From: Mycobacteriales bacterium
GTDB taxonomy: Bacteria; Actinomycetota; Actinomycetes; Mycobacteriales; JACQDL01
Assembly (NCBI GenBank): GCA_035476575.1
Contig: DATILL010000124.1
Span: forward strand, 9,039-73,038
Direction: 5' to 3'
DNA: 64,000 nucleotides
Every line of letters begins with the position of its first letter. Position 1 is the first letter of the stretch. Below the pieces are notes generated by a model. The model saw only the letters and a list, made by a program, of their open reading frames with translations, had not been told where the DNA came from and did no database searches. Made by a program: the position numbers and the translations under genes. Positions 1,558 to 59,515 of this stretch are shown here, in pieces.

Positions 1558-3288
1558 ATGGGGGACGACGACGCGGGCCAGCCCCGCAACGGCTCATCCC
1601 AGGGCGGCCCACCCCACGGGAGCCAGCCCGAGAACGGCCGCGCCCTTGACAACCCGACCACCGACCACGCCCGATTAGTGAGCCTGCTGGACCAGGCGGA
1701 GCGGCTGTTCGACGAGCACGACCCCGCGGCTGGCATCGACCCGGCGCGTGACGCCGTGGAGCTGGCCCGGCTGCTGGGCGACGGGCCGCTGACAGCCCGT
1801 GCCCTGGCCCTGCTTGGCGGTCATCACCGGCTGGCCGGCGACGCCGGCCGGGCCGTCCCGCTGCTCACCGAGGGCGCCGACCTGGCCGACAAGTACGCCG
1901 TACCGCCGGTGCAGGCGGCCTGCCTGACCAACCTCGGCTACCTCGCGCTGATGGCGGGCGACCTGACCGAGGCCACGGCGTACCTGGAGCGGGCACTGGT
2001 CATCCAGCGCTCCGTCGGCAACGTGGTGGGCGAGGCTGCCGTGCTCGACTATCTCGCGTTCACCCTGTACGAGGAGGGAGAGCAGGGGCAGGCCGAGGAC
2101 CTGCTGGACCGGGCGCACCGGATCCGGCAGGAGCACGGCGACCCCCGGTGGATCGCGGTCAGCCTGAACAACAAGGGCTACCTGGCCAGCCTGCTCGCCG
2201 CCCGGGTCGGCGTCGGGCCGGACCGGGTCGCGCGGTACCGGCAGCGGGCCGTCGACCTGCTTACCGACGCCGTGGACCACGCGCTGCGCTGCGACCACCG
2301 GGAGCTGCGCTCGTTCGTGACCGCCAACCTGGCCGCCGCCCGGGTGGCGCAGGGTGTCGACGAGCCGTCGCCGGCGGTCTTCGCGGGCCGGCTGGCCGCT
2401 GCCCGCCGGACCGGCGACCGGCCGGAGGAGGCGCTGGCGCTGTTCAACCTCGGCCGGGCGCACTTCCTGGCCGGTAACCGGGCCACCGCTGAGCTGCTGT
2501 GGGCCGAGGCGGTCGAGCTGGCCAACGAGCTCGGCCAGAGCAGGCTGCTGCGCGACATCCACCGCGACATCGCCTGCGACTACGAGGAGGCCGGCGAGGC
2601 GACCAGCGCGCTGGAGCACTACAAGCGGTTCCACGAGCTGGAGCGCACCGTCGCCGCCGAAGCCGCGGCGCAACGCGCCCGGCTGGCGATGGTCCGGCTG
2701 GAGGCGGAGCACGCCCGCCACGAGACAGAGCGGTACCGGCAGCTCAACGCCGAGCTGGCCGAGGCCAACCGGCGGTTGAAGGAGCAGGCCCTGCTGATGG
2801 ACCGGGTGTCCCGGGAGGACGAGCTGACCGGGCTGGGCAACCGGCGGTACCTGGCCGCCCGGCTGCCGCTGGCGTACGAGCACGCGCTGCGGACCGGTGA
2901 GCCGCTGGCGGTGCTGGTGGCCGACGTCGACCTGTTCAAGGAGATCAACGACCGGTACTCGCACGGTGTCGGGGACGCGGTGCTGCGGTCGGTGGCCCAG
3001 CTCCTGTCCGCTGCCACCCGGCCCGGTGACCTGGTGATCCGCTACGGTGGCGAGGAGTTCGTGCTCGTGCTGGCCAACACCGACGTGGCCGGCGCGCGGA
3101 GCCTGGCCGAGCGGCTGCGTGCACTGGTGGAGGACCACGACTGGGACGTGATCCGTCCCGGCCTGCGGGCCACCATCAGCCTCGGGGTCTGCGCGGACAC
3201 CGGGCTCGGCTCCGGCCCGCGGATGATCGACGTCGCCGACCAGCGGATGTACGACGCCAAGCGGGCTGGCCGGAACCGGGTCCGGTGA
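1558..3288 (+). CDS. TPR-repeat / coiled-coil diguanylate cyclase (GGDEF domain)
   Basis: ATG at 1558 in the frame of ORF 781..3288. The C-terminus has DELTGLGNRRYL...DVDLFKEINDRYSHGVGD...RYGGEEFVLVL...DQRMYDAKRAGRNRV. Confidence 0.85.
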   Translation: MGDDDAGQPRNGSSQGGPPHGSQPENGRALDNPTTDHARLVSLLDQAERLFDEHDPAAGIDPARDAVELARLLGDGPLTARALALLGGHHRLAGDAGRAVPLLTEGADLADKYAVPPVQAACLTNLGYLALMAGDLTEATAYLERALVIQRSVGNVVGEAAVLDYLAFTLYEEGEQGQAEDLLDRAHRIRQEHGDPRWIAVSLNNKGYLASLLAARVGVGPDRVARYRQRAVDLLTDAVDHALRCDHRELRSFVTANLAAARVAQGVDEPSPAVFAGRLAAARRTGDRPEEALALFNLGRAHFLAGNRATAELLWAEAVELANELGQSRLLRDIHRDIACDYEEAGEATSALEHYKRFHELERTVAAEAAAQRARLAMVRLEAEHARHETERYRQLNAELAEANRRLKEQALLMDRVSREDELTGLGNRRYLAARLPLAYEHALRTGEPLAVLVADVDLFKEINDRYSHGVGDAVLRSVAQLLSAATRPGDLVIRYGGEEFVLVLANTDVAGARSLAERLRALVEDHDWDVIRPGLRATISLGVCADTGLGSGPRMIDVADQRMYDAKRAGRNRVR

Positions 3289-3369
3289 CTTGATGAGCTG
3301 GCCGGAACGTCCCCCCGGCACGATAGTTTGCCTTCCAAAGGACTCTCTCGACCAAGGGACTTGCTGGCG

Positions 3370-5496
3370 ATGACTGATCGGACCATTTCCGGCGGGACAC
3401 CCGCACCCGAGCTACCGGGCGGGGCGCCCGCACCGGAGCTACCGGGCGGGACACCCGCACCCGGTCAGTTCATGGACCTGGCCGCGTTCGTCGCACTGCC
3501 CCGGCTGTCTGGCCTCGTCGTCTCGCCGGACGGCGCCCGGCTGGTGACCTCGGTCTCCCGCCCCGGCCCGGACGGCACGAAGTACGCCTCGGCGCTGTGG
3601 GAGATCGACCCGGCCGGCGTACGGCGCCCACGGCGGCTGACCCAGTCCGCCCTCGGCGAGTCGCAGCCGGTGTTCGCGCCGGATGGCTCGCTGGTGTTCA
3701 CCTCTCGCCGGCCCGACCCGGCGGAGAGGTCCACGGCGGGTGACGGTGCCGGCGATCGGGCCGACAAGCCCGCGCTCTGGGTGCTTCCGGCCGGTGGTGG
3801 CGAGGCCCGGGCGGTCGCGAGCCGGCCGGGCGGGATCGGTACCGTGGCGGTCGCCCAGGTGGCCGGCGACGTGGCCTTCCTGGCCGGCGTGCTGCCAGGT
3901 TCTGGCACCGTCGAGGAGGACGAGCAGGCCCGCAAGGCCCGCAAGGATGCCGGGGTCACCGCGATCCTGCACGAGCGGTACCCGGTGCGGCACTGGGACC
4001 ACGACATCGGCCCCGACCAGGCCAGGGTGTTCCTCGCCGGCCCGCTGCCGTCCGACGAGGAGCGCTACGCCGAAGCCCGCGACCTCACGCCCGACCCGCA
4101 GGGCCGGGTGGGCGACGCGGAGCTAGCCCTCTCTCCTGACGGCAGCCTGGTCGCCTACGGCTGGACCGTGGACGGCCAGGGGGCCGAGGAGAGGCACACG
4201 ATCGTGGTGGCCGAGACCGCCACCGGAGCCCGCCGGCTGGTGCTGCAGGAGCCGGACGCTGGCTTCGTCACCCCGGTGTTCTCCCCGGACGGTGGGTCGC
4301 TGGCCTGCGTGCGCGAGGAGATCACCACCTACGAGGGGGTCGGGCGCTGCACGCTGTGGCTGGTCGACCTGGCCACCAGCGCCGGCCGGGACGCCACCCC
4401 GAGCTTTCCGGACGCACCGTGCTCACCGGTCTTCGCGCCGGAGGGCGACGCGGTCTACCTCATCGCGGACGAGCGCGGGCACTCGCCGGTGTTCCGGCTG
4501 GACATCGCGGACGGTTCGATCACCCGGCTGACGGCGTCCGGTGCGTACACGGACGTGACGCCGGCTCCTGACGGCTCGGCCGTGTACGCGCTGCGGTCGG
4601 CCGTGGACAGCCCGCCCACGCCGGTGCGGCTGGACCCGAGGGTGGCCGACCAGGACGCCGTACCGCTGCCCAGCCCGGGCGACCTCGGCACGCTGCCGGG
4701 CACCCTGGTCGAGGTGACCACCAGCGCGGACGACGGCGTGCCGCTGCGGGCCTGGCTGTGCCTGCCGGACGGCGCCTCGGCCGCCGACCCGGCGCCGCTG
4801 CTGCTGTGGATCCACGGCGGCCCGCTGGCGAGCTGGAACGCGTGGTCGTGGCGGTGGAACCCGTGGCTCATGGTCGCCCGGGGGTACGCCGTCCTGCTGC
4901 CCGACCCGGCGCTGTCCACTGGCTACGGCCCGGCGTTCATCGCCCGTGGCTGGGGCGCCTGGGGAGCCCGGCCGTACACCGACGTCATGGCGCTGACCGA
5001 CGCCGCGGTCGCCCGGGACGACATCGACGAGAGCCGAACCGCCGCGATGGGCGGCAGCTTCGGCGGGTACCTGGCCAACTGGGTGGCGACCCGGACCGAG
5101 CGGTTCAAGGCGATCGTGACCCACGCCAGCCTGTGGCATCTGGACGCCTTCGGCGGGGCCACCGACCATTCGTGGTACTGGCTGCGCGAGATGGGTGACC
5201 CGCTCAGCCAGCCGGAGCGGTACCTCGCCAACTCGCCGCACCTGGGGGTACGGAACATCCGCACCCCGATGCTGGTGATCCACGGTGACAAGGACTACCG
5301 GGTGCCGATCGCCGAAGGGCTGCGGCTGTGGTTCGACCTGTGCCGGTTCGAGGTGCCGGCGAAGTTCCTGTACTTCCCAGACGAGAACCACTGGATCCTG
5401 ACTCCGGGGCACGCCAAGGTGTGGTACGAGACTGTGCTGGCCTTTCTGGCCGAGCACGTCCTGGACCACAAGTGGGAGCGCCCGTCCCTGCTGTGA
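3370..5496 (+). CDS. S9 family prolyl oligopeptidase / acylaminoacyl-peptidase-like serine peptidase
   Basis: ORF 3328..5496. Beta-propeller N-terminal part, then WIHGGP...GGSFGGYL...IHGDKDYRVP...DENHW (Ser-Asp-His hydrolase domain). Start at 3370 (MTDRT) is chosen, so it is uncertain. Confidence 0.85.
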   Translation: MTDRTISGGTPAPELPGGAPAPELPGGTPAPGQFMDLAAFVALPRLSGLVVSPDGARLVTSVSRPGPDGTKYASALWEIDPAGVRRPRRLTQSALGESQPVFAPDGSLVFTSRRPDPAERSTAGDGAGDRADKPALWVLPAGGGEARAVASRPGGIGTVAVAQVAGDVAFLAGVLPGSGTVEEDEQARKARKDAGVTAILHERYPVRHWDHDIGPDQARVFLAGPLPSDEERYAEARDLTPDPQGRVGDAELALSPDGSLVAYGWTVDGQGAEERHTIVVAETATGARRLVLQEPDAGFVTPVFSPDGGSLACVREEITTYEGVGRCTLWLVDLATSAGRDATPSFPDAPCSPVFAPEGDAVYLIADERGHSPVFRLDIADGSITRLTASGAYTDVTPAPDGSAVYALRSAVDSPPTPVRLDPRVADQDAVPLPSPGDLGTLPGTLVEVTTSADDGVPLRAWLCLPDGASAADPAPLLLWIHGGPLASWNAWSWRWNPWLMVARGYAVLLPDPALSTGYGPAFIARGWGAWGARPYTDVMALTDAAVARDDIDESRTAAMGGSFGGYLANWVATRTERFKAIVTHASLWHLDAFGGATDHSWYWLREMGDPLSQPERYLANSPHLGVRNIRTPMLVIHGDKDYRVPIAEGLRLWFDLCRFEVPAKFLYFPDENHWILTPGHAKVWYETVLAFLAEHVLDHKWERPSLL

Positions 5497-5790: not shown

Positions 5791-9660
<3,870 letters not shown>

Positions 9661-18608: not shown

Positions 18609-18638
18609 GAGCACGCAAGTTAGAGGCTGGCCGCCCGT

Positions 18639-18749
18639 GTGGTCACCTCTTGGGGTCTCCCAGCAACGAGAGGTCACCACAACGCCGAGAGGTGACCACA
18701 CGCGCCGCCACAGCAACGAGAGGTCACCACAACGCCGAGAGGTGACCAC
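18639..18749. repeat. Palindromic 12-mer repeat cluster 1 (GTGGTCACCTCT family)
   Basis: One forward 12-mer at 18639, then two tandem 50-bp copies of CAGCAACGAGAGGTCACCACAACGCCGAGAGGTGACCACA. Lies in the hflX / MFS divergent intergenic region. Confidence 0.85.
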
Positions 18750-18845
18750 AACGCCGGCTTGCCGGTCGGGTCTGCGTGCGGGCTCCGCTACGCCGTGAGG
18801 ATAAACCGACTGACAGAGCTCAACCAGTCCGGGCACGCTGCACGG

Positions 18846-24013: not shown

Positions 24014-24057
24014 GTGGGCAGATCGCGTGGTCCCACTGCGCTTTCGGTCCACTCACG
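24014..24057. repeat. Palindromic element copy A (GGACAGATCGCGTGGTCCCACTGCGCTTTCTGTCC family)
   Basis: GTGGGCAGATCGCGTGGTCCCACTGCGCTTTCGGTCCACTCACG lies just after the DUF349 stop and is near-identical to the element at 24870-24933. Confidence 0.8.
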
Positions 24058-24111: not shown

Positions 24112-24874
24112 ATGAAACCTGAGCTGGTCCGGCTCGCCCGGCGGCAGCACGGCCTCTTCTCCCTCCAGCAGGCGTACGCGGCCGGGTACTCAGCCTGGCA
24201 GGTCCGCTCCAGGGTCGCTGACGGCGCCTGGTGCTGCCAGGCCAACGGCGTCTTCTCGGCCGGGGCCACGCCGATGACCGAGCCGGCGTGGCGGTGGGCG
24301 GCGTACCTTGCCTGCGGCCCGCGAGCGGTGCTGAGCCACCTGTCCGCCGCGGCATTATGGCGGCTCCCGGTGAACGGGCATCCGCCGCACGTGACGGTGC
24401 CGCCCGAGGCCCGGCCCCGTCCGGGCGGGCCGATCATGGTGCACCGGGTGCGGCTTGGCCCCCGCGGACGCCAGCCACCGGCTGGCTGGGTCGCCCAAGC
24501 GGCTGGGCAATGCGCGGCTCCGGCGACTGTTGCGACGGGCGTCAGACGGCGCAGCCTCCGAAGCCGAGCGGGTGTTGCACCGGCTGCTCCGCTCGGCTGG
24601 GCTGATCGGCTGGCTACCGAACTATCCGGTACGCCTCGGCGGCCAGTCGGTGGTGCTGGATGTCGCGTTCCCCACGACCCGGCTGGCGATCGAGGTCGAC
24701 GGCCTGGTCTGGCATGTGGACCCGGCCCGGTTCCAGCGCGACCGCACCCGCCAGAACGAGCTGGTCACCGCGGGGTGGACGGTGCTGCGCTTCACCTGGG
24801 CGGACCTGACCGAGCGGCCGGACCACGTGGTGGCCGTGGTCCGGTCCACCCTCGATCGGCTTTCGGCCGCGTGA
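24112..24874 (+). pseudogene. DUF559 / AbiEi-N-like endonuclease-related gene, disrupted (frameshift plus internal deletion)
   Basis: The N-part MKPELVRLARRQHGLFSLQQAYAAGYS...VHRVRL is in frame 24058. The C-part RLGNARLRRLL...AIEVDGLVWHVDPARFQRDRTRQNELVTAGWTVLRFTWADL is in frame 24455. The usual middle region seems to be missing. Confidence 0.65.
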
Positions 24875-24933
24875 GTGGACAGATCGCGTGAGTGGACAGA
24901 TCGCGTGGTCCCACTGCGCTTTCTGTCCGCGCA
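24870..24933. repeat. Palindromic element copy B with duplicated left arm
   Basis: CGTGAGTGGACAGATCG occurs twice, then CGTGGTCCCACTGCGCTTTCTGTCCGCGCAC. The first copy contains the DUF559 TGA stop. Located between the DUF559 gene and the miaB 3' end. Confidence 0.8.
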
Positions 24934-37038: not shown

Positions 37039-37092
37039 TGGGTCATCGTGGCAGAGCGCAGCGTGACCGCGACCCCCGTCGCCCCGGAAATT

Positions 37093-37123
37093 GTGGTCAC
37101 CTCTCGGCGTTGTGGTGACCACA
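37093..37123. repeat. Palindromic 12-mer repeat, single unit (locus 2)
   Basis: GTGGTCACCTCT-CGGCGTT-GTGGTGACCACA, 22 nt upstream of the lhr promoter motif. Confidence 0.85.
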
Positions 37124-40100: not shown

Positions 40101-41858
40101 TGGATCGCGATCGAGGACGCCGGCCGGGTCCGGGACGCGCTCGGGGTGGCGCTGCCGGTCGGTGTGCCGGAGGCGTTCACCGAGCCAGTGGCCGACCCGC
40201 TCGGCGACCTGGTCGGCCGGTATGCCCGCACCCACGGGCCGTTCCACCCAGCCGACTGCGCCCGCCGGCTCGGGCTCGGGCCGGCGGTGGTCGGCGACGT
40301 GCTGGCTCGGCTGGCCGCAGCCGGGCGGGTGGTGACGGGCGAGCTCCGGCCCGGCGGGTCCGGGCCTGAGTGGTGCGACGCGGAGGTGCTGCGGCGGCTC
40401 CGGCGGCGTTCGCTGGCCCGGCTGCGGCGCGAGGTGGAGCCGGTGCCGCCGGAGGTGCTGGCCCGGTTCCTGCCGGCCTGGCAGGGAGTGGCCGGGTCGG
40501 CGGGCCGGCCAGGCTCGGGGTCGGGTGGCCGGCGGTGGCGCGGGGTGGACGGCCTGCTGCGTGCGGTGGAGCAGTTGCAGGGGGCAGCGGTACCGGCCTC
40601 CGCGCTGGAGTCGCTGGTCCTGCCGGCCCGGGTGGCCGACTACGCACCGGCCCTGCTGGACGAGCTGACCGCGGCCGGCGAGGTGGTATGGGCCGGGGCC
40701 GGCGGGCTGCCCGGCAACGATGGCTGGGTGCTGCTGGCTCCGGCCGAGACCATGCCGCTGGTGCTGCCCGCGCCGGAGGAGATCACGCTGGCCCCGCTGC
40801 ACCAGGCGGTGCTGGCCGCGCTGGACGGCGACCAGGCGTACTTCTTCCGGTCGCTGTCGGACCGGGTGTACGCGGGGGCCAGCCCAGCCAGCCCAGCCAG
40901 CCCAGCCGGGCTGGGCATCGGTCCGCCGGACGACCAGGCGCTGGCCGGCGCGGTATGGGACCTGGTCTGGGGCGGGCTGGTCACCAACGACACGCTTGCG
41001 CCGCTGCGGGCCCGAATCGGCGCCGGCCGCACCACGCACCGGCGCCGGCCCGCCGCTCCCCGCGGCCGGTACGGCCCACCGCGACCCACGCTGCCGAGCC
41101 GGACGGGACCGTCGGCGATGGCCGGGCGGTGGTGGCGGCTGCCAGAACGGGAGGCGGACCCGACCCGGCGGGCGCACGCCCTGGCCGAGGTCCTGCTGGA
41201 CCGGCACGGCGTGGTCATCCGGGGCGCAGTGCTGGCCGAGCGTGCGCCGGGCGGCTTCGCTGGGGTGTACCCGGTGCTGCGGGCGTTCGAGGAGTCCGGC
41301 ACCTGCCGGCGCGGGTACTTCGTGGACGGGCTCGGCGCCGCGCAGTTCGCCTCGCCGGGCGCGGTGGACCGGCTGCGCGGGTACGCCGCCGACCGTCCCG
41401 AGGCCAGCCCAGCCGGTACCGGTCCGGCGCTGGTGCTGGCGGCGACCGACCCAGCCAACGCCTACGGCGCCGCGCTGCCCTGGCCGGACCGGCCGGCCGC
41501 CGCTCCCGAGCAGCCGTCCCCTATCCGCCCCACCAGTGGGCCGCCCGCCAGCCCAACCGCCAGTGGCGGGCACAAGCCGGGGCGCAAGGCCGGCGCGCTG
41601 GTCGTGCTGGTGGACGGTCGGCTGGTGCTCTATGTCGAACGCGGCGGCCGGAGCCTGCTGTCCTGGAGCGACGACCCGGACGTGCTCCAACCGGCGGCCG
41701 ACGCGCTCGCGCTGGCCGTGCGGGAGGGCAGCCTGGGCTCGATCGCGGTGCAGCGGGCGGACGGCGGCCCGGTGCTCGCCGAGACCGGTGTGCTGGCCGG
41801 TGCGCTGGCGGCGGCCGGGTTCCGGGCCACCCCGCGCGGCCTTCGGCTGCGCGGATGA
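37173..41858 (+). CDS. lhr: Lhr-family large ATP-dependent helicase
   Basis: 1561 aa. VVAPTGSGKTLAAF, DEIH, SAT, HHGSMSREQR and a large C-terminal extension, as in mycobacterial Lhr. Confidence 0.9.
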   Translation: MTGSLPGFSPTTAAWFTAAFAGPTAAQRAAWAAIGRGEHTLVVAPTGSGKTLAAFLWSLDRLAAEPPPADPARRCRVLYLSPMKALAVDVEKNLRAPLAGIRQAARRLGLPTPDIQVAVRSGDTPADERRGLTRHPPDVLITTPESLFLLLTSGAREVLRGVDTVIVDEIHAVCGTKRGAHLALSLERLDALLPRPAQRVGLSATVRPVAEVARFLAGGRVVTTVQPPSAKTVELRIVVPVEDMSALGGPTLGGPAGDLDGDAIPQRRASIWPHVEERVLDLIEEHRSTIVFANSRRLAERLTSRLNELAYERRHGEALAAETVPAQLMGGSGSGPGAPAVVARTHHGSMSREQRLSVEEDLKAGRLPAVVATSSLELGIDMGAVDLVVQVESPPSVAAGLQRIGRAGHQVGATSRGVIFPKYRGDLVESAVVAERMRAGAIEAIRYPRNPLDVLAQQVVAMVAMDGWRVADLAALVRRAAPYAELPDSALDAVLDMLSGRYPSDAFAELRPRLVWDRVTGLLSPRPAAQRLAVTSGGTIPDRGLFGVYLAGTAEGRPVRVGELDEEMVYESRVGDVFLLGSSSWRIEDITHDRVVVSPAPGEPGRMPFWKGDAPGRPAELGRALGAFLRELAGMTPAAARERAHAAGMDPLAADNLVAYLAEQRQATGQLPDDRTLLVERFHDELGDWRVVVHSPFGAPVNAPWALAIATRLRERYGVDAQSMHSDDGIVLRLPETETVPDAGLAVFDAEEVAGLVTDGVATSALFAARFRECAARALLLPRRDPRRRTPLWQQRQRAAQLLAVAAQFPSFPITLEAMRECLQDVFDLPGLVALMSDIAARRVRVVEVETPEPSPFARSLLFGYVGAFLYEGDAPLAERRAQALALDSALLAELMGQAELRELLDPAALAEVEAELAWLTAERRVTTLDSLHDALRILGDLTTAEALARGASPHLLAELEAGRRALRVRIAGEQRWIAIEDAGRVRDALGVALPVGVPEAFTEPVADPLGDLVGRYARTHGPFHPADCARRLGLGPAVVGDVLARLAAAGRVVTGELRPGGSGPEWCDAEVLRRLRRRSLARLRREVEPVPPEVLARFLPAWQGVAGSAGRPGSGSGGRRWRGVDGLLRAVEQLQGAAVPASALESLVLPARVADYAPALLDELTAAGEVVWAGAGGLPGNDGWVLLAPAETMPLVLPAPEEITLAPLHQAVLAALDGDQAYFFRSLSDRVYAGASPASPASPAGLGIGPPDDQALAGAVWDLVWGGLVTNDTLAPLRARIGAGRTTHRRRPAAPRGRYGPPRPTLPSRTGPSAMAGRWWRLPEREADPTRRAHALAEVLLDRHGVVIRGAVLAERAPGGFAGVYPVLRAFEESGTCRRGYFVDGLGAAQFASPGAVDRLRGYAADRPEASPAGTGPALVLAATDPANAYGAALPWPDRPAAAPEQPSPIRPTSGPPASPTASGGHKPGRKAGALVVLVDGRLVLYVERGGRSLLSWSDDPDVLQPAADALALAVREGSLGSIAVQRADGGPVLAETGVLAGALAAAGFRATPRGLRLRG

Positions 41859-46289: not shown

Positions 46290-46327
46290 CGGACCTCCGT
46301 CGTACTGCGGGTGGCGGGACGTCGACC

Positions 46328-46412
46328 CGGCACCCAGGCGCGCGGTGAAGGTCAGGCCGTGGCGTCGCTCCCCGGTGGTGGGCTCCACCTTTGTTGCGCC
46401 AGTCGCGACAAG
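46328..46412 (-). promoter_or_regulatory. ZTP (pfl-motif) riboswitch upstream of glyA
   Basis: The minus strand reads GCGACUGGCGCAACAAAGGUGGAGCCCACCACCGGGGAGCGACGCC...CACCGCGCGCCUGGGUGCCGGGUCG. It carries the conserved ACUGGCG, CCACCGGGG and CGCCUGGG elements of the two pfl subdomains. Confidence 0.75.
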
Positions 46413-46436
46413 CCGGATGCTACCCGCCGCCGCCGG

Positions 46437-48318: not shown

Positions 48319-48469
48319 CCGGGCCCGCCTGCGAACGGGCCGGATGGGGGCCGGGCAGGATGGGGCGGTGCCAGCGGGAGACACCGTGTCGATTCGCCGG
48401 CGTCCCGTTCGTCATGACAGTGACCGCAGCCGCTGTGGTCACCCGCGAAAGACAACCCGAGGGGGGAAC

Positions 48470-51607: not shown

Positions 51608-51922
51608 GTGTCCATCCCGGACGCCGGGGCGGCGGTGTTCAGCCCGATCACGATGAGCGGCGTCAGCGGCAACGCGCCGGCGACCCTGCCGGTGTCAGTG
51701 AACATCCAGCACACCTGGCGGGGTGACCTGGTGATCGACCTGGTCGCGCCGGACGGCTCGACGTACCGGCTGAAGAGCTTGAGCAGCTCGGACAGCGCCG
51801 ACATCGCGACGTACACCGTCAACGCCTCCAGCGAGGTCGCCAACGGCACCTGGCAGCTCAAGGTGCAGGACGTGGCTGCTCAGGACGTCGGCTTCATCGA
51901 CACCTGGAGCCTGACCTTCTGA
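51608..51922 (+). pseudogene. Proprotein-convertase P-domain fragment, probably the detached C-terminal domain of the carboxypeptidase
   Basis: VSIPDAGAAVFSPITMSGVSGNAP...HTWRGDLVIDLVAPDGSTYRL...GTWQLKVQDVAAQDVGFIDTWSLTF has no signal peptide of its own. Removing one nt at 51604-06 would join it in frame (..FTNGT-N/Y-VSIPD..). Confidence 0.65.
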
Positions 51923-51936
51923 CGTCCCCACCCAGT

Positions 51937-52018
51937 GTGGTCACCTCTCGGCGTTGTGGTGACCTCTTGTTGGTCCAAGGACCCCAAGAGGTCACCACAC
52001 GGCGCAGAGGTGACCACA
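51937..52018. repeat. Palindromic 12-mer repeat cluster 3 (inverted pair of units)
   Basis: GTGGTCACCTCTCGGCGTTGTGGTGACCTCT-tgttggtccaaggaccccaag-AGAGGTCACCACACGGCGCAGAGGTGACCAC. Confidence 0.85.
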
Positions 52019-59267: not shown

Positions 59268-59304
59268 GCTGGCGCTCCTCCTCCGCGACCCCCGGCAGCC
59301 TACT

Positions 59305-59483
59305 GTGGTCACCTCTCGGCGTTGTGGTCACCTGTCGTTGCCTCCGCAGCCCGTGTGGTCACCTCTCGGCGTTGTGGTGACCTGTCGTTGCCTCCGGACC
59401 CCAAGAGGTCACCACAAGACCGACAGGTGACCACACGGGGAGGCCGGGCAACGACAGGTGACCACAACGCCGAGAGGTGACCA
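59305..59483. repeat. Palindromic 12-mer repeat cluster 4 (two forward plus two reverse units, nested palindrome)
   Basis: Eight 12-mers: GTGGTCACCTCT, GTGGTCACCTGT, GTGGTCACCTCT, GTGGTGACCTGT, then AGAGGTCACCAC, ACAGGTGACCAC, ACAGGTGACCAC, AGAGGTGACCAC. Lies in the echA-like / FAD-oxidoreductase divergent region. Confidence 0.9.
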
Positions 59484-59515
59484 CACCGGAAGCGGGGGCG
59501 GGCTAGCCTGGCCGG

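Follow-up and report, generated by a model that had tools for sequence, protein, structure and literature searches.

Short interspersed repeats are usually classed as hairpin elements moved by a RAYT (REP-associated tyrosine transposase), REP being a repetitive extragenic palindrome. A RAYT-associated REP is an imperfect palindrome of 20-40 bp, the stem of which is preserved through compensatory changes. Bacterial interspersed mosaic elements (BIMEs) are clusters of REPs bound by gyrase, IHF or DNA polymerase I. In E. coli, the BIME-2 and atypical BIMEs form clusters of tandem REP pairs with fixed linkers and reported gyrase-binding sites (PMC2817692; PMC3333891). REP palindromes end on one side in a conserved tag, either GTAG or CGTC, and the CGTC-type class is without a dedicated transposase (PMC3733652). 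A further kind of repeat, the mycobacterial interspersed repetitive unit (MIRU) of M. tuberculosis, consists of tandem units of 40-100 bp at 41 intergenic loci; it is reported to lack obvious palindromes and to keep a single direction with respect to the flanking genes (PMC5056196). MIRU/VNTR loci vary in copy number from strain to strain. The repeat family presented here shares the population features of REPs and BIMEs and departs from their structural and genetic criteria.

The window, i.e., the whole stretch of DNA analysed, comprises 64 kb (C124:9039-73038) of a 4.57-Mb assembly in 160 contigs with 71.4% GC. At no more than one mismatch, the 12-mer GTGGTSACCTST has 21 matches in the window (shuffled sequences: mean 1.28, maximum 6), a number reached by none of 100 shuffles. 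The preliminary description had placed the 12-mer at four intergenic loci, and all 18 exact copies in the window are indeed found there: five at 18639-18749, one at 37093, which is accompanied by the variant GTGGTGACCACA at 37112, four at 51937-52017 and eight at 59305-59484. Matches with one mismatch at 3694, 4710 and 56879 stand isolated. On reading the loci, the proposed basic unit, a 12-mer followed by CGGCGTT and a second 12-mer (19 bp start to start), was seen, and the loci at 51.9 and 59.3 kb hold the inverted pair and the 2+2 palindrome, respectively, that had been described. The locus at 18.6 kb does not consist of simple pairs; a single box is joined there to two inverted units (+----). 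The degenerate copy suspected at 48419-48447 is doubtful in view of its second box and its spacing (Table 1).

Table 1. Repeat features in the window (positions counted from the first nucleotide of the window; spacing given between box centres)
Feature	Position	Strand	Details
5-box array, +----	18638..18750	.	Spacing 31-19-31-19
Single two-box unit	37092..37123	+	Second box is the fully palindromic TGTGGTGACCACA
Doubtful relic, not counted in the family	48419..48447	.	One good box, CTGTGGTCACC, and one imperfect box, AGTGACC, 18 rather than 19 bp apart
Array ++--	51936..52018	.	Junction of 32 bp, a rare exception to the 31-bp rule
8-box array (4 units), ++++----	59304..59485	.	Spacing 19-31-19-31-19-31-19
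Unit 1	59304..59335	+	TGTGGTCACCTCT-CGGCGT-TGTGGTCACCTGT; centre bases C,C
Unit 2	59354..59385	+	TGTGGTCACCTCT-CGGCGT-TGTGGTGACCTGT; centre bases C,G
Orientation-flip junction spacer	59386..59403	.	CGTTGCC...CCCCAAG type; 31-bp centre distance maintained
Unit 3, inverted	59404..59435	-	
Unit 4, inverted	59454..59485	-	

Gene positions were taken from an ORF caller based on GC3 and are approximate, with uncertain start codons. The array at 59.3 kb, whose core centres lie at 59310, 59329, 59360, 59379, 59410, 59429, 59460 and 59479, occupies most of the 247 bp that separate two divergent genes, one with a methyltransferase domain (minus strand, start 59268) and one for an amine oxidase (plus strand, start 59516). 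A scan of this locus found neither a sigma-70 promoter nor a terminator. The array at 18.6 kb is also situated in a divergent gap, between the start of hflX (minus strand, ~18578) and an unannotated plus-strand ORF. The unit at 37.1 kb, which has a 10-bp stem (-10.3 kcal/mol), is followed 50 nt downstream by the start of lhr (37173), and the array at 51.9 kb begins 14 nt past the stop codon (51920-51922) of a P-domain ORF, which in turn comes after an M14 peptidase gene.

A genome-wide pattern search found hundreds of further copies, and a reading of the loci as local duplication only is therefore not borne out; the interspersed intergenic family that had been proposed is real and far larger than the window implies. 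The box is 11-13 bases long and is present in ~1,000 copies in the genome. There are 878 exact TGTGGTSACCT boxes, only seven of which lie outside multi-box clusters, and about 400-431 copies of the two-box unit. When boxes are chained by core spacing, 206 arrays of two to nine boxes are obtained, together holding 992 boxes. A box was found within 150 bp of 38 of the 320 contig ends (12%), compared with 2.8% of random windows, which indicates that the arrays break the assembly and that the true copy number is higher.

The spacing of the boxes, measured from centre to centre of the palindromic core GGTSACC, is highly regular. Among 820 adjacent pairs, 475 are 19 bp apart and 321 are 31 bp apart, together 97%, while 17 are irregular and seven are 49-50 bp apart with one box missing between them. 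The repeat unit thus has a period of 50 bp (19 + 31), and the centre-to-centre distance is unchanged where the orientation flips. Arrays nearly always have a 19-bp pair at either end, and their box number is even, most often six (58 arrays), four (48), two (30) or eight (22). Box orientation is set by the asymmetric flanks, TGT on one side and T on the other, and the orientation within an array is either uniform or changed by a single flip, the commonest forms being ++++ (28), ++ (24), ++++-- (24, and 15 more with one box missing), ++-- (9) and ++++++ (9). The flip is located in a 31-bp spacer and is almost always of the +- kind (99, vs. 8 of the -+ kind), so that TGT faces outward at both ends of the array. 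The unit consensus is CCCG-TGTGGTCACCT-cTCGGCGT-TGTGGTGACCT-nTcGTtG, with the core unit CCCGTGTGGTCACCTcTCGGCGTTGTGGTGACCT; the 31-bp spacer reads TgTCGTTGnC-nnnnnn-gCCCGTGT between direct units and TnTCGTTGcC-nnnn-GACCCCAAGA, in either direction, at junctions. The conserved linkers are CGGCG/GCGCC, CGTTG...CCCG and CGTTGcC...GACCCCAAG.

Conservation is confined to part of this structure. Box positions carry about 2 bits each and the GC at the centre of the 19-bp spacer is conserved to 97%, whereas in the 31-bp spacer there are eight positions with only 0.3-0.8 bits. Identity at these eight variable positions is 0.64 within arrays and 0.42 between arrays, and near-identical spacer pairs make up 22% of the pairs within arrays vs. 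0.28% of those between arrays. The greater identity within arrays implies that arrays grow partly via local unit duplication, and arrays at separate loci are no recent copies of one master. Because phase is kept while the eight positions vary, substitutions are free in the spacer where indels are not; the free positions are randomised and indels nevertheless almost absent, which suggests constraint on phase and boxes and not youth of the arrays. The near-identity of distant units had been attributed to recent spread or to constraint. The data speak for constraint and not for recent spread, since unit identity is limited to the boxes and a few spacer bases and so few spacer pairs between arrays are near-identical.

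Two further rules were found in the boxes themselves. The centre bases of the 19-bp pairs, read on either strand, are CG in 230 cases, CC in 117, GG in 105 and GC in only 11, where 32 GC pairs would be expected under independence; in other words, one deviant box per pair is tolerated and two are not. This pair rule suggests that the two boxes of a unit are read together. Moreover, canonical boxes account for 87% of terminal and 66% of internal boxes (p = 3e-9), the canonical terminal core being GGTCACC when read from outside inward, and the ends of the arrays are therefore special.

It could be argued that the family is a neutral minisatellite similar to MIRU/VNTR loci, i.e., an anciently seeded 50-bp unit subject to slippage and concerted evolution and without any sequence-specific partner. 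The presence of 50-bp tandem units across many intergenic loci would agree with this, as would the closer resemblance of units within than between arrays and the breaking of short-read assemblies at the arrays. However, position-specific conservation at >200 unlinked loci would hardly arise unless selection or a templating enzyme were at work, and boxes of ~2 bits lie beside spacer positions of far lower information content in arrays from which indels are almost absent. Conversion tracts that homogenise the boxes should presumably homogenise spacers of 8-20 nt too, and slippage predicts neither the pair rule nor the end rule. A neutral minisatellite is thus an improbable explanation.

The arrays are restricted to intergenic DNA: 192 of the 211 clusters lie outside any stop-to-stop ORF and the remaining 19 are at extreme ORF ends. 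Of the 148 arrays with two called neighbours, 44 lie in divergent, 35 in convergent and 69 in tandem gaps, a distribution that differs (p = 0.0015) from that of the background gaps (549 divergent, 529 convergent and 1685 tandem). The difference is modest and consists in fewer arrays in short tandem gaps. A role of the repeats as marks of divergent promoters would fit the window, but does not fit these genome-wide counts. At gene 3' ends, arrays start at a median of 20 nt past the stop codon, and a cluster of them is seen at 4-5 nt (stop-CCCG-TGTGG); distances to start codons are widely spread (median at least 65 nt). The arrays are neutral in orientation and context. Their orientation relative to transcription is random (12 same and 16 opposite; 18 and 17 for asymmetric arrays), and the share of arrays with inverted units does not differ (p = 0.61) among divergent (59%), tandem (59%) and convergent (69%) gaps. 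Avoidance of GGTNACC due to restriction-modification was also considered and rejected; the counts of the core match the expectation of a Markov model.

The palindromic core raises the question of a hairpin. According to the preliminary description, each unit could form a hairpin of 7 bp, which is the case for only about half of the units, those with C..G centres. The stem of a C..G unit is weak (7 bp, -6.5 kcal/mol, z = -2), and a C..C unit gave no fold when folding was computed. With a stem under selection, the centre pairs CG and GC would be favoured to the same degree, and CC and GG would be selected against; the reverse was seen. Mirror arms across the flip do not covary, as agreement at variable positions is 0.473 compared with 0.518 for shuffled partners, and the arms accordingly neither pair preferentially nor resemble fresh inverted duplications. 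In an analogous arm-pairing test, the arms of a control hairpin family in the same genome (CGATCATCGAG-N36-CTCGATGATCG, 74 copies) do covary (0.751 vs. 0.635, about +8 sd). Taken together, three tests give no sign of the hairpin as a selected feature.

These results bear on the proposal, made for classical REPs, that the repeat acts as a structural hairpin or cruciform, folded in RNA or single-stranded DNA, and serves as a factor-independent terminator, a stabiliser of mRNA 3' ends or an RNase target. In favour of such a role, the predicted folds of inverted arrays are very stable: the 59.3-kb array reaches -97.8 kcal/mol (z = -13.75) as single-stranded DNA and the 51.9-kb array -42.9 kcal/mol (z = -9.9). 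Arrays at gene 3' ends, moreover, usually lie within 30 nt of the stop codon. However, inverted units are found in 91 of the 148 arrays with called flanking genes, and the other ~40% have direct units only and no stem other than the weak one just mentioned, in half of their units. Pairable GC centres are depleted and the mirror arms lack the covariation seen in the control family. The 44 arrays between divergent genes are located where transcripts do not end, the inverted form is no commoner at 3' ends, orientation is random with respect to transcription, and no terminator-like T-tracts were found in the scan of the 59.3-kb locus. Terminator hairpins and neutral minisatellites are both less likely readings, and the hairpin in particular is very improbable.

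The absence of a RAYT/IS200-type transposase, observed before for the window, is true of the whole assembly. PF01797 (Y1/RAYT) has no match in this genome, which is 98.4% complete, while controls matched in 6 of 14 genomes. RAYT, IS200 and TnpB were accordingly rejected as mobilisers, their genes being absent from the assembly and the controls being found in reference genomes. The genome has eight rve, seven DDE_Tnp_1 and four resolvase genes, and none of these 19 adjoins an array; the nearest transposase or recombinase is 1.2 kb from an array and most are >6 kb away (random median 9.6 kb). No transposase was found between outward-facing arrays. Genes bracketed by arrays were considered as a hidden transposase and have ordinary products: as named from reading the translations, they comprise a PIN toxin, a MerR regulator, rsmI, an antiporter and nicotinate phosphoribosyltransferase, as well as DUF58, HemW, a glycosyltransferase-like membrane protein, DUF559 and two P450s. 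Paralogues of DUF559 show no linkage to arrays. Array-bearing stretches of metagenome contigs that are missing from the assembly likewise hold no transposase and encode an encapsulin, CopCD, an ECF sigma factor and SdhAB. In 77 arrays of the +...- form, the best direct repeat at the ends averaged 2.77 nt, compared with 2.77 +/- 0.10 in the null, and there is thus no target-site duplication.

The main rival to the explanation favoured below is that the family is a selfish repeat mobilised in trans, a non-autonomous element of REPIN (paired-REP) or MITE (miniature inverted-repeat transposable element) type. Its boxes would then be sites for an enzyme encoded elsewhere or lost, which would copy units or arrays into intergenic DNA, preferentially beside existing copies and in register, and box conservation would reflect a copying requirement and not a host function. 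In accordance with this, the family is very abundant in a single lineage and no array was found in the genomes screened from the class (400) and the order (300); the outward-facing TGT at both ends of flipped arrays (99 vs. 8) resembles inverted transposon termini; canonical boxes are more frequent at array ends than inside; and arrays lie within 1-25 nt of stop codons, as if non-disruptive insertions alone survived. Two nearly identical ++++-- arrays, 792 bp apart on contig C70, could also be explained in this way, and a lack of dedicated transposase is equally found in the published CGTC-type REP class (PMC3733652). On the other hand, the assembly is 98% complete and yet has neither Y1/RAYT nor TnpB, no array adjoins any of the 19 rve, DDE_Tnp_1 and resolvase genes, and the genes bracketed by arrays and in the additional metagenome stretches are ordinary. 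Target-site duplication equals that of the null, the scarcity of near-identical spacer pairs between arrays (0.28%) speaks against a recent burst from a master copy, and array length and composition vary freely. A selfish repeat is rather unlikely, though more probable than the hairpin or the minisatellite.

The ends of Tn7/Mu-type elements hold several direct transposase-binding sites and have TGT...ACA termini. Direct asymmetric boxes in each arm, inverted arms and an outward TGT are common to these ends and the present arrays. In contrast, the arrays have no cargo, transposase or target-site duplication, they are strictly periodic, and many of them consist of one 'arm'.

The family is known from one population only. 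In 400 other genomes of the class, the two-box unit occurred in at most one copy per genome, and none of 40 near relatives, two of them from the same family, contained it. When 300 genomes of the order were searched by BLAST with the 197-bp array, short single matches only and no array were obtained; one 23-nt match that was examined proved to be a single box in apparent coding sequence. Collections of viruses, plasmids and phages contained no matches. A 310-kb sample of the same-family genome G002 held no comparable family, only a small unrelated palindrome, and the amine-oxidase neighbour of the 59.3-kb array is not conserved in family-level relatives examined in an empty-site comparison. 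A metagenome scan yielded 97 loci, nearly all of them in one JGI metagenome and on contigs ~100% identical to the genome. The same population is thus seen in a different assembly, which makes an artefact of the assembler unlikely; the differences between these contigs and the genome are unrelated tandem indels of 15-36 bp. The eight remaining metagenome matches were rejected as family members, as they are unrelated 19-bp minisatellites. The repeat had not been recognised as a described REP or MITE family, and no catalogued match to it was found: Rfam gave only sub-threshold microRNA-hairpin noise, and a full-text literature search with the box sequences gave, among the papers listed, only primers and unrelated matches. 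Species-specific repeats are common in bacteria (PMC3372372), and the surprise is therefore moderate.

With the E. coli BIMEs, the family has in common a high copy number, a strictly extragenic location, composite arrays, regular spacing and conserved linker motifs. Both have two ordered box types, C-centred then G-centred here and Y and Z2 in E. coli, and in both the copy number varies per locus without target-site duplication. However, REP orientation alternates in BIMEs (PMC2817692), whereas units here are mostly direct with at most one flip, and each REP is an imperfect palindrome, whereas the hairpin here is not maintained. The cognate RAYT gene is flanked by REPs, unlike in the present assembly, which is without RAYT; the sequences are unrelated, and the host does not belong to the Proteobacteria, the group in which REP-RAYT systems were defined. 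REPINs and REP-RAYT systems (PMC2817692; PMC8049555) are likewise lineage-specific and abundant, with inverted doublets able to form long hairpins. They differ in their fixed-length doublets, compensatory stem evolution, GTAG head and RAYT, four features that were tested here and none of which was found.

In comparison with REPs generally, the 878 exact boxes in 206 arrays lie well within the range of >100 extragenic copies per genome, and neither a GTAG nor a CGTC tag is present in the unit consensus or in the spacer consensus TgTCGTTGnC...CCCG. The CGTC-tagged REPs are also abundant, palindrome-containing intergenic repeats without an associated transposase gene; the present family differs from them in having no CGTC tag (the spacer reads TgTCGTTG), a core that is not a stem-loop and a 50-bp tandem layout. 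MITEs have a defined length, a target-site duplication and terminal inverted repeats shared with an autonomous IS of the genome, whereas the arrays here range from two to nine boxes with no transposase nearby. The size and layout of MIRUs agree with those found here, i.e., a 50-bp unit, one to four or more units per array and 206 loci, and both kinds form short tandem arrays of units of ~50 bp at many intergenic loci of a high-GC Gram-positive genome. In contrast to MIRUs, the present family has a palindromic core, inverted units, random orientation and about five times as many loci.

Of the explanations considered, we prefer, with about an even chance of its being correct, that of a lineage-restricted, non-autonomous repeat of the REP/BIME kind that consists of phase-locked boxes read by a putative protein. 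The exact phase, the paired asymmetric boxes, the constrained ends, the free spacers and the indifference to transcription are the reasons for reading the arrays as protein-read DNA. The conserved feature is a phase-locked row of asymmetric boxes, TGTGGT[C/G]ACCT, and not a hairpin, and the boxes may be binding sites for one sequence-specific protein that reads both boxes of a unit together and forms a row along the array. At the DNA level, selection for such binding would preserve the boxes, the spacing and the array ends while the remaining spacer drifts, and arrays would grow mainly through in-register duplication of units. The effect would be on DNA and not on RNA, possibly in chromosome structuring, supercoil management or protein loading, comparable to BIME-2 and gyrase in E. 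coli. Protein binding, the paired reading of boxes and any cellular role are what we infer from these patterns. It should be noted that conserved sites with free spacers would also be expected from a trans-acting transposase, and the pattern itself therefore does not show a benefit to the host.

Some points speak against this explanation. The flanks of a box (TGT...T) show a direct, asymmetric arrangement, the centres of a pair have dyad symmetry, and no simple symmetric dimer fits this combination. Known operator geometries include GTnAC-n6 for GlnR/AfsQ1, 11-nt repeats of GTTCACC for PhoP, TGTGA-N6-TCACA for CRP and TGGT-N-ACCA for GntR, and all of these were rejected because of a misfit in spacing or symmetry. 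To our knowledge, no operator geometry matches the 19/31 spacing.

A more far-reaching interpretation, which we regard as tentative and rather unlikely, is that the family represents an unrecognised kind of prokaryotic repeat: a phase-locked platform for a cooperative, sequence-specific protein, with paired reading of asymmetric boxes at 19 bp and polymerisation with a period of 50 bp, independent of hairpins and RAYT. If this is true, the protein could be a lineage-specific chromosome-structuring factor or a new enzyme for in-register copying of units beside those already present, and the pair rule and the canonical-end rule would be its binding signature.

The arrays explain part of the fragmentation of the assembly (12% of contig ends), and the boxes are a specific marker for binning and strain-typing of this uncultured organism. 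The family has the abundance and mosaic layout of REPs and BIMEs, yet it fails all hairpin and RAYT tests, and it retains the exact 19/31-bp phase and the pairwise box rule. If a protein partner of the phase-locked boxes exists, the arrays would be a compact natural case in which a protein is loaded periodically onto the intergenic DNA of a high-GC Gram-positive lineage, and would show that BIME-like arrays can arise without the REP-RAYT machinery.

The palindromic element of about 45 nt that flanks a DUF559-like gene on either side in the window is a local duplication and not a dispersed family, because a search of the whole genome returned two copies in total. The DUF559 paralogues on contigs C6, C35 and C119 of the assembled genome (G000) had no link to this element, and the paralogue on C119 lies between two arrays of the box family by happenstance. 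Two riboswitches in the window are listed with the other features in the table.

Positions of the features described (C, contig of G000; L, scanned or sampled locus)
Feature	Location	Strand or orientation	Remark
TPP riboswitch	window 7492-7601	-	60.2 bits, above Rfam gathering threshold
ZMP/ZTP riboswitch	window 46325-46416	-	52.1 bits, above Rfam gathering threshold
Palindromic element, ~45 nt	window 24014-24057; 24870-24933
Box arrays, ++++--	C70:40493-40624; 41417-41548	direct	792 bp apart
Hairpin family, example copies	C2:271; C14:13404; C17:29595; C40:107416		outside window
Indel sites, metagenome	L021:6961; L094:6215; L019:764; L054:3343; L057:4201; L072:4205
Indel sites, contigs compared in G000	C35; C79; C156; C119; C118
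Type 2A encapsulin shell protein genes (SrpI-like)	L088:1780-3216; 3257-4630		tandem pair, Ga0307470_10006469
Minisatellite, 19-bp period	L007:6574-6736		Pseudomonas rhodesiae DSM 14020, NZ_VFEU01000024.1

A second interspersed repeat family, of conventional type and distinct from the box family, was also observed in G000, where it is present in 74 copies. Its unit, CGATCATCGAG-N36-CTCGATGATCG, spans about 60-75 bp and carries GATC-containing loops, which were seen in both orientations. Compensatory changes were found in the stem, and the complementarity of the arms was 0.751 vs 0.635 with shuffled partners. As for the box family, no RAYT gene for this hairpin family was found in G000. In other genomes, the 19-bp minisatellite of P. 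rhodesiae, with at least seven exact copies of AGGTCACCACAGCAAGCCA, matched the box by chance and was rejected as an unrelated sequence. In G002, a genome from the same taxonomic family as G000, a separate small palindromic repeat, CCGGCTCATCACGAGCCGG, is present; 16-mers spanning it were counted six times, strands merged, in the 310 kb sampled (L112-L129).

Comparison of the JGI metagenome assembly with G000 showed short indels, 15-36 bp in length, which have no relation to the box family and may reflect either true minisatellite polymorphism within the population or assembly collapse; both 36-bp indels are visibly tandem 18-bp repeats. The metagenome also contains an encapsulin stretch that is mostly missing from G000, in which each encapsulin bears a cyclic-nucleotide-binding domain at its N-terminus and the pair adjoins a box array at the end of the contig.

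The two ++++-- arrays on C70 are almost identical to each other, variable spacers included. The gene that they enclose encodes a protein of 140 aa whose sequence, on inspection rather than by family search, looks like that of a PIN-domain (VapC-like) toxin. This array-plus-gene segment is the clearest candidate for recent duplication or movement.
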